A stretch of DNA of 64,000 nt. It comes from a virus (lineage: Duplodnaviria; Heunggongvirae; Uroviricota; Caudoviricetes). Both the position numbers and the translations under genes were made by a program. The notes beneath the pieces are model-generated. The model saw only the letters and a program-made list of their open reading frames with translations. It had not been told where the DNA came from and searched no databases. This document shows positions 28,673-29,731 of this stretch, one piece after another; position 1 is the stretch's first letter, and each line of letters begins with the position of its first letter. The stretch lies in the IMG/VR virus record IMGVR_UViG_2718217859_000011, positions 1 through 64,000 of that record. One strand, given 5' to 3'.

Positions 28673-29731
28673 TCATCCGTTCTGACTGACTAAATCCTGA
28701 ACTTCCCTCACCGTCTGATCAAAACGCCCGGTCTCCAGCTCAACGCCAATTGCACGACGTCCCAGCGCCATCGCTGCTTTGACCGTCGAACCCGACCCCA
28801 TGAAAAAATCTGCAACCAGAGCTCCCGGACGACTGCTGGTGGTAATTATCTGACGCAACATCTCCGCCGGTTTTTCACAGGGATGTTTGCCGAGGTAATA
28901 CTGTACAGGCTTATACATCCAGACATCCGTATACGGAACAGCAGCCGATACAGAAAAATAACGCCGCAAAGATTTGTACTCCTCCAGCGGGCTGGCATAT
29001 TGCCGGTTAAGTTCACTGTATGTGCTGACCAGCTGGTGGTGTGGCTTTTCCAGTTCCCCGCGTTGATGTTTTTCTGCTGCAACACGCGCAAACAACGCCT
29101 GCAGTTTTCTGTAATCATCCTCGTTCGGTAACTGCCACTGGCGGGCACCAAACCAGTGCGACACCATGTTTTTCTTTCCGGTGGCTTCCGCTATCTGTTT
29201 TGACGTTATTCCCAGTGATTCACGCGCATCACGAAAGTAAGAAATCAGCGGGGCCATGACGTGCTGTTTTAGCTCGCGCCCCTTTGCCGCATAGCCGTCA
29301 TTTTTGGGCTGGTATGGCCCCTGATAATGTTCTGCAAACAGAATGCGTTCTGTCGCCGGGAAATACGCCCGCAGGCTTTCCTTGCTGCACCCGTTCCAGC
29401 GCCCGGACGGCTTCGCCCAGATAATGTGATTCAGCACATTAAAGCGTTCACGCATCATGATTTCGATATCAGATGCCAGGCGATGACCACAGAACAGGTA
29501 AAGACTTCCGGCGGGCTTTAATACCCGCCAGAACTGCGCCAGACACTGGTCCAGCCATTTCAGGTAATCATCATCGCCCTTCCACTGGTTATCCCAGCCC
29601 TCGGGCTTCACTTTAAAGTATGGCGGGTCTGTGACTATCAGGTCGACAGAGTTTTCCGGTAAGGCCTGGATAAACTCCAGGCAATCAGCGTTGATTAACT
29701 CACAACTGGATATTTTTACAGTATCAACCAT
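28673..29731 (-). CDS. DNA methyltransferase, beta-class (DPPY ... FxGxG)
   Basis: 352 aa; DPPY near N-terminus and FFMGSGST near C-terminus (N6-adenine/N4-cytosine beta order); no restriction partner nearby. Confidence 0.85.
   Translation of the reverse strand: MVDTVKISSCELINADCLEFIQALPENSVDLIVTDPPYFKVKPEGWDNQWKGDDDYLKWLDQCLAQFWRVLKPAGSLYLFCGHRLASDIEIMMRERFNVLNHIIWAKPSGRWNGCSKESLRAYFPATERILFAEHYQGPYQPKNDGYAAKGRELKQHVMAPLISYFRDARESLGITSKQIAEATGKKNMVSHWFGARQWQLPNEDDYRKLQALFARVAAEKHQRGELEKPHHQLVSTYSELNRQYASPLEEYKSLRRYFSVSAAVPYTDVWMYKPVQYYLGKHPCEKPAEMLRQIITTSSRPGALVADFFMGSGSTVKAAMALGRRAIGVELETGRFDQTVREVQDLVSQNG

Follow-up and report, generated by a model that had tools for sequence, protein, structure and literature searches.

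An M.EcoGII-family adenine methyltransferase gene and its conserved leader in the late operon of an Escherichia coli lambdoid prophage

The late operon around the methyltransferase gene

The window considered here is a stretch of 64,000 nucleotides of viral DNA (IMG/VR record IMGVR_UViG_2718217859_000011), in which an earlier note, made from the sequence alone, had marked a methyltransferase gene at 28673..29731 (minus strand, 352 aa). The setting of this gene is the late operon of an E. coli lambdoid prophage. The order on the minus strand is Q, a tR'-like terminator, a membrane ORF, a 65-aa ORF, a hairpin with a T-run, the methyltransferase gene, tRNAs, TerB/DUF3927, holin, lysozyme and Rz. 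The late antiterminator Q (31213..32034, minus strand, 273 aa) matches PF03589 (Antiterm, E = 7e-51) and is an 'antitermination protein' in RefSeq. The tR'-like intrinsic terminator (31113..31132, minus strand; AGCCCGCCATAGAGCGGGTT then TTTTGTGCCC) lies about 80 nt 3' of Q, a location that agrees with the lambdoid pR'-tR' layout (PMC7547250). A Trp_leader match at 31106..31185 (E = 0.066) was rejected as a mere reflection of the tR' hairpin.

The next gene encodes a multi-pass membrane protein of 239 aa (30254..30973, minus strand; PHROG 1521, E = 4e-84, no assigned function). It fills a slot for variable cargo that lies between tR' and the small ORF; of the loci fetched for comparison, only the prophage of E. 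coli RM9088 has a match to it, and phage phiP27 carries a gene for a GIY-YIG nuclease at this place. The tR'-like terminator together with about 40 nt after it (31105..31135, minus strand) recurs in degenerate form at approximately 30160..30225, just before the small ORF. The two copies bracket the membrane ORF, as if it had been inserted with duplicated post-pR' sequence.

The small ORF (29882..30079, minus strand, 65 aa) is annotated in RefSeq (WP_000917767.1) and belongs to PHROG 331 (E = 1e-37), which has no assigned function. The earlier note had described it as winged-helix-like, in keeping with the names of its homologues ('TrmB family transcriptional regulator' or 'DprA-like winged helix'), but its own Pfam match to TrmB reaches only E = 0.008. 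The AlphaFold2 model, of low confidence (pLDDT 67, alignment of 22 sequences), consists of four helices with no beta wing, and a Foldseek search of the PDB with this low-confidence model returned nothing below E = 3. The protein can be described as helix-turn-helix-like, and no further. The ORF is found directly 5' of the methyltransferase gene in 27 of the 42 genome loci with upstream sequence; the loci that lack it have a strong terminator or another ORF before the methyltransferase. The small ORF is hence a frequent, but not an obligatory, partner. A terminator-like hairpin with a T-run (29878..29895, minus strand; scan match GCCTTCCGCAGTGAAGGC then TTTTTAATTT) is located at its stop codon, immediately 5' of the leader of the methyltransferase gene. 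A hairpin at this position, of variable sequence, is present in nearly all related loci.

On the other side, the methyltransferase gene is followed by a phage tRNA cluster (28379..28632, minus strand) consisting of an ileZ-like tRNA, a degenerate middle tRNA and an Arg-TCT tRNA, annotated in RefSeq as tRNA-Ile, tRNA-OTHER and tRNA-Arg. ARAGORN places the first (CAT anticodon) at 28557..28632 and the last at 28379..28455, and each of these two intact genes scores 72 bits with the Rfam tRNA model. Genes for a TerB-family protein (PF05099, E = 2e-16) and DUF3927, the names following RefSeq, are found at 27613..28205 (minus strand). In Stx phages this place after the tRNAs is taken by stx (stxA2e/stxB2e in phiP27); one further locus (L005) is like the window. 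The class II holin gene S (26837..27052, minus strand), recognised from RefSeq annotation of a near-identical region and from tblastn conservation, starts the lysis cassette. The methyltransferase gene thus occupies the cargo site between Q and S, flanked by the tRNAs and the membrane ORF, as had been proposed. The same lambdoid prophage contains two RusA-family resolvase genes (32031..32405 and 34915..35310, minus strand) together with DUF968 and KilA-N genes; the two RusA genes probably reflect a mosaic ancestry of the nin region.

The gene had also been called an orphan, a claim that holds. Neither PADLOC nor the RefSeq annotation of the identical region gives a match to a restriction or defence nuclease among its neighbours, and the adjacent cognate endonuclease gene that marks a type II restriction-modification system is absent next to 28673..29731. 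All ORFs within about 10 kb are phage genes in RefSeq. PADLOC returns the methyltransferases themselves as well as one weak, non-nuclease match (PDC-S22) on a KilA-N-like ORF. A motif scan of all six frames detected no third methyltransferase in the window.

The arrangement is widespread. We surveyed 44 genome loci from Enterobacterales (Escherichia, Enterobacter, Klebsiella, Kluyvera, Citrobacter, Buttiauxella, Erwinia, Pantoea, Photorhabdus, Xenorhabdus and others), 42 of them with upstream sequence. DUF968, RusA or Q is located upstream of the methyltransferase in the 44 loci, and holin or lysozyme downstream wherever detectable; tRNAs adjoin the gene in Escherichia-type loci only. Phage 1720a-02, phiP27 and some Stx2 phages likewise combine the small ORF, the methyltransferase and the tRNAs in one module. 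The minimal form is that of phage SfV: Q, terminator, orf47, orf48 (the methyltransferase), terminator, S. The products of phiP27 L24 and SfV orf48 are annotated as 'DNA methylase' or 'unknown' in these sequenced lambdoid phages. Both phages share the small ORF, the leader and the methyltransferase with the window, and phiP27 the tRNAs in addition. In contrast to the window, with its TerB/DUF3927 genes and membrane ORF, phiP27 carries stx2e after the tRNAs and the nuclease gene after Q.

A Mu-like prophage and a second methyltransferase

The lambdoid match to RM9088 ends at position 36707. From 36705 onwards the left end of a Mu-like prophage is found, which continues to the end of the window at 64000. 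The insertion (at about 36706) lies inside a lambdoid HTH gene that is uninterrupted in RM9088. The Mu-like prophage encodes a repressor (37020..37682) and a transposase (38072..40114), as well as Mor, terL, gpT and tail genes.

The second orphan beta-class methyltransferase of the earlier note, placed there in a Mu-like element, is indeed located in this prophage (48851..49591, plus strand). The protein of 246 aa matches PF01555 (E = 1.9e-24), with DPPY at residue 33 and FMGSG at 202. Its gene lies between DUF1804 and terL, in a context of Mu transposase, Mor, DUF1804, terL, DUF935 and gpT; in RefSeq the 'DNA-methyltransferase' WP_042966124.1 adjoins terL. In a 99.3%-identical Mu-like prophage of the E. 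coli OkiPb strains, DUF1804 leads straight to terL and no methyltransferase is present, so the gene is optional cargo. Its best phage relatives (Escherichia phage Chuche and bpm of Bordetella phage BPP-1) are 53-54% identical, and the identity between the two methyltransferases of the window is 19%. Judged by sequence, the two genes are unrelated acquisitions; they are near each other only because the Mu-like prophage transposed into the lambdoid one.

With the insertion in between, Q and the late region no longer adjoin the remainder of the early region, which makes expression in this host doubtful. Q, and hence the methyltransferase of the late operon, may never be expressed here.

The methyltransferase and its place in the M.EcoGII family

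The 352-aa protein matches PF01555 (N6_N4_Mtase, E = 2e-42), so that the motifs named in the earlier note stand up to profile matching. The catalytic motifs DPPY (residues 35-38) and FMGSG (310-314) are both intact, and since motif IV precedes motif I, the order is that of the beta class. Positions 1-219 of the 221-position profile are stretched across residues 29-340, which points to a target-recognition domain of some 90 residues set between the catalytic lobes.

The closest characterised relative, whose family the earlier note, right on all points, did not recognise, is M.EcoGII, a beta-class enzyme of 349 aa from a prophage of E. coli O104:H4 C227-11 that methylates adenine in any context (PMC5778455). 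The two proteins share 303 of 349 residues (about 87%), a figure that is approximate because the M.EcoGII sequence was machine-read from the supplementary PDF of PMC11551740 and contains a few reading errors; the only gaps of the alignment, two of one residue each, are such errors. Taken by region, the identity is highest in the N lobe (95%) and lower in the recognition domain (residues 116-270; 82%) and the C lobe (81%). The dimer-interface residues (97-110 and 116-140) are the same in both enzymes apart from two: S98N, at which the window has the residue of the ancestor and of most homologues, and N116S, where N is found in 139 of 149 homologues. From the ungapped alignment over residues 135-260 we infer that the window enzyme has a helix-turn-helix, four-helix-bundle recognition domain and a long charged linker. 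[quoted passage not shown]

Other relatives give the same picture. The protein is 84% identical to the reconstructed ancestor Anc291, about as close as to M.EcoGII. SUPREM, an ancestor with only 69% identity to M.EcoGII, is still not site-specific in its methylation (PMC11551740), and M.PflMI, of the site-specific enzymes the one closest to the family, has an identity of about 27% with M.EcoGII. These identities place the protein of the window well inside the sequence space that is non-specific by experiment. The identity is 95% with L24 of phiP27 and 87% with the enzyme of phage 1720a-02, which Murray et al. name as a close relative of M.EcoGII (PMC5778455). Homologues with 92-94% amino-acid similarity have already been labelled 'nonspecific' in REBASE-based work (PMC6602927). 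At the DNA level the gene and its surroundings are 100% identical to the RM9088 prophage, in which the product is WP_040091372.1 ('DNA-methyltransferase'). Of 5426 complete E. coli genomes, 1962 contain related DNA according to megablast, with 3463 places in all. By its sequence, the gene is an ordinary, already known and very common copy of a characterised family, one of thousands, and the family is sold commercially as EcoGII.

We therefore read 28673..29731 as the gene for a non-specific N6-adenine methyltransferase of the M.EcoGII family, expressed late and serving anti-restriction, a reading whose probability we put at about 0.8. The promoter pR' is constitutive and its transcripts end at tR' in lysogens, the late genes requiring Q (PMC7547250). 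Given its position 3' of Q and tR', the methyltransferase gene should be silent in the lysogen and transcribed only with the late operon after induction, and the phage-late-region markers around the gene in the 44 loci are consistent with this. This would be in line with M.EcoGI and M.EcoGII, which are unexpressed in the native lysogen and whose constitutive expression is harmful to the cell (PMC5778455). Upon induction, Q-modified polymerase would pass the terminators and the methyltransferase would be made. Its recognition domain and charged linker would bind nucleic acid with no reading of sequence, so that every accessible adenine becomes methylated, and the replicating phage DNA would be modified indiscriminately before packaging. 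The packaged DNA would then resist those restriction enzymes of the next host that are blocked by m6A, a role that has been proposed in the literature; the in vivo role of M.EcoGII is described as unknown (PMC11551740). Our literature search found nothing relevant on induction-dependent methylation by an M.EcoGII-type enzyme in Stx phages. For a gene of this family, membership at about 87% identity means that a REBASE target prediction, as suggested earlier, would yield 'non-specific' and not a motif; motif prediction is meaningless here, and methylomes of lysogens will not show the enzyme. Comparable enzymes are known from the Mu-like prophages that carry M.HaeV/hia5, hin1523 and nma1821 (Drozdz et al. 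2012, PMC3299994). These adenine methyltransferases are likewise phage-borne orphans, are non-specific or nearly so and are thought to replace Mom against restriction. They are of the alpha class, however, with the reverse order of motifs, whereas both methyltransferases of the window are of the beta class.

The most serious alternative, though one we consider improbable, is that the gene no longer yields functional enzyme and is inactive or in decay, its frame surviving intact in a crippled prophage. Compared with 149 distinct homologues, the allele has rare residues at four positions that are at least 93% conserved: S197R (S in 139 of 149), L248P (L in 147), P280L (P in 144) and D304A (D in 141). 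L248P introduces a proline into the predicted helical linker, and any of the four could reduce activity. Decay would also fit the splitting of the prophage by the Mu-like insertion, as well as the state of the near-identical RM9088 prophage, in which IS66 has inserted and the head protease gene has become a pseudogene. Against decay, the full-length frame, both catalytic motifs and the leader are intact, the allele is kept at 99% nucleotide identity or more in 13 complete genomes of different sources, and P280L is also found in the functional Stx2e phage phiP27. The four substitutions may reflect relaxed selection in a crippled prophage.

It is very unlikely that the enzyme is a sequence-specific orphan of the Dam or CcrM kind, marking a defined motif of host or phage DNA for regulation. 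Most of the beta-class enzymes in its PDB and NCBIfam match lists (RsrI, CcrM, MboIIA, YhdJ-like) are site-specific, and M.PflMI has a similar overall predicted fold. Yet these matches span the two catalytic lobes only, with scores far under the family cut-offs (112 bits versus a cut-off of 292), whereas the similarity to M.EcoGII, far above that between M.PflMI and M.EcoGII, includes the recognition domain and the linker. Lysogens carrying homologues, moreover, display no extra motif. We give equally little weight to RNA (phage or host transcripts, or rRNA) as the substrate in vivo, since M.EcoGII, although it accepts RNA and DNA:RNA hybrids as substrates in vitro (PMC5778455; PMC7544214), is more active on DNA, the RNA activity varies about 12-fold among the ancestors as if unselected (PMC11551740), and a location ahead of the lysis and packaging genes suits the modification of DNA.

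The conserved leader of the methyltransferase gene

Between the hairpin and the ATG of the methyltransferase, about 140 nt are non-coding but conserved (29732..29870, minus strand). This leader is a candidate structured cis-regulatory RNA. It is the sole previously unreported feature of the locus and may represent a new class of cis-regulatory RNA. The column identity of the leader is approximately 0.90, compared with 0.89, 0.92 and 0.62 for the first, second and third codon positions of the methyltransferase gene and about 0.6 farther upstream; the leader is therefore conserved across Enterobacterales to the same degree as codon positions 1 and 2. It is present in 35 of the 42 genome loci with upstream sequence, irrespective of the small ORF, and the element is recorded for the loci L006-L047, L049-L128 and L129. 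A covariance model gives one strong match per locus, each adjoining the ATG of the methyltransferase. Core matches number 236 over the viral and genome loci. In 226 of them this ATG follows at a fixed distance, which is 130-132 nt in 213 cases; the remainder consist of matches at contig ends, two that fall in coding sequence by chance, and five contigs with a cut leader. In complete E. coli genomes the leader is found at 4390 places (2707 of 5426 genomes), with no annotated feature under it among the matches listed.

The leader does not correspond to a known RNA in Rfam: a search of Rfam 15 gave no match at E of 1 or below for the leader in the window, and none at E of 10 or below on the sense strand for that of a consensus-type locus. 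A coding function was likewise rejected. The 47-codon ORF of the window that overlaps the start of the methyltransferase gene is not conserved; the sense frame in the leader ends after 7 codons (MGGWWVL*) in most taxa, and single-base indels shift it. The antisense frame is interrupted by stops or shifts in many sequences, and no conserved ORF was found on either strand.

In the consensus fold, a helix P1 (UGGGC/GCCCA) encloses a 12-bp P2 and P3 and is followed by P4 and P5; 93% of the cells are paired. One pair of P3 is unbroken in 32 sequences through compensatory changes (CG in 17, AU in 7, UA in 4 and UG in 4). P4 and P5 have one covarying pair each, although the counts at the top of P2 and P4 understate the pairing visible by eye, as realignment to the covariance model mis-registers these parts in E. 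coli-type leaders. Its G-U pairs assign the structure to the sense strand. When the sequences are folded singly, an alternative arrangement is consistently preferred, in which AUGGGC/GCUCAU closes P2 and the UGAUCU immediately before the AUG is buried in a long-range helix (AGGUCA/UGAUCU with AAGCG/CGCUU). This arrangement fits the alignment equally well (94.5% paired), with weak covariation. No canonical Shine-Dalgarno sequence precedes the AUG of the methyltransferase. The sequence UGAUC is complementary to GAUCA near the 3' end of 16S rRNA.

The data support a conserved, structured leader, and they permit, rather than prove, a two-state switch over the ribosome-binding region. Our hypothesis is that the leader is probably a control element for translation, a candidate for restricting or timing the synthesis of a methyltransferase toxic to the host. 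The further proposal, that it is an undescribed cis-acting RNA switch gating the translation of this host-toxic, indiscriminate enzyme, is tentative and on balance somewhat doubtful. In such a switch, AAGC(G/A/U)AA would pair either upstream with UU(C/U/A)GCU or downstream with (C/U)GCUU, and the downstream pairing would adjoin the AGGUCA/UGAUCU helix that buries the sole sequence resembling a ribosome-binding site. The switch could be triggered by the methyltransferase, by the winged-helix protein encoded next to it, or by a metabolite, for example SAM.

In its logic the arrangement may come closest to the com-mom operon of phage Mu, in which a small protein and an mRNA hairpin control the translation of a DNA-modification enzyme toxic to the host (PMC6483171). 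In both cases a host-damaging, anti-restriction modifier would stand behind a small ORF and a structured leader able to pair over the ribosome-binding region. Membership in the com-mom group is not supported. There is no sequence relationship, Com is a zinc-finger protein whereas the 65-aa ORF is of the helix-turn-helix type, and the 65-aa ORF is absent from about one third of the loci that keep the leader. The fixed late-operon position and the leader provide testable handles on how a blanket methylase stays off until lysis, and the leader is the only element of the locus that might repay experiments.

Some matches deviate from the common arrangement. The mis-specified pattern AATGGRCGGCTGGTGGRKT was found in only 6 viral contigs, of which at least 3 do not have Photorhabdus-type leaders: two match by chance in coding sequence, and one has an E. 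coli-type leader that is truncated. In five IMG/VR contigs (L136, L153, L190, L216 and L235) the leader ends after the P2 hairpin, at about 55 nt, and is followed by an AT-rich stretch with TATAAT and then by a different ORF of 237 aa (MVVVCSVIMVCSPINIF...). The cut leader next to a different ORF points to replacement of the cargo through recombination inside the leader.
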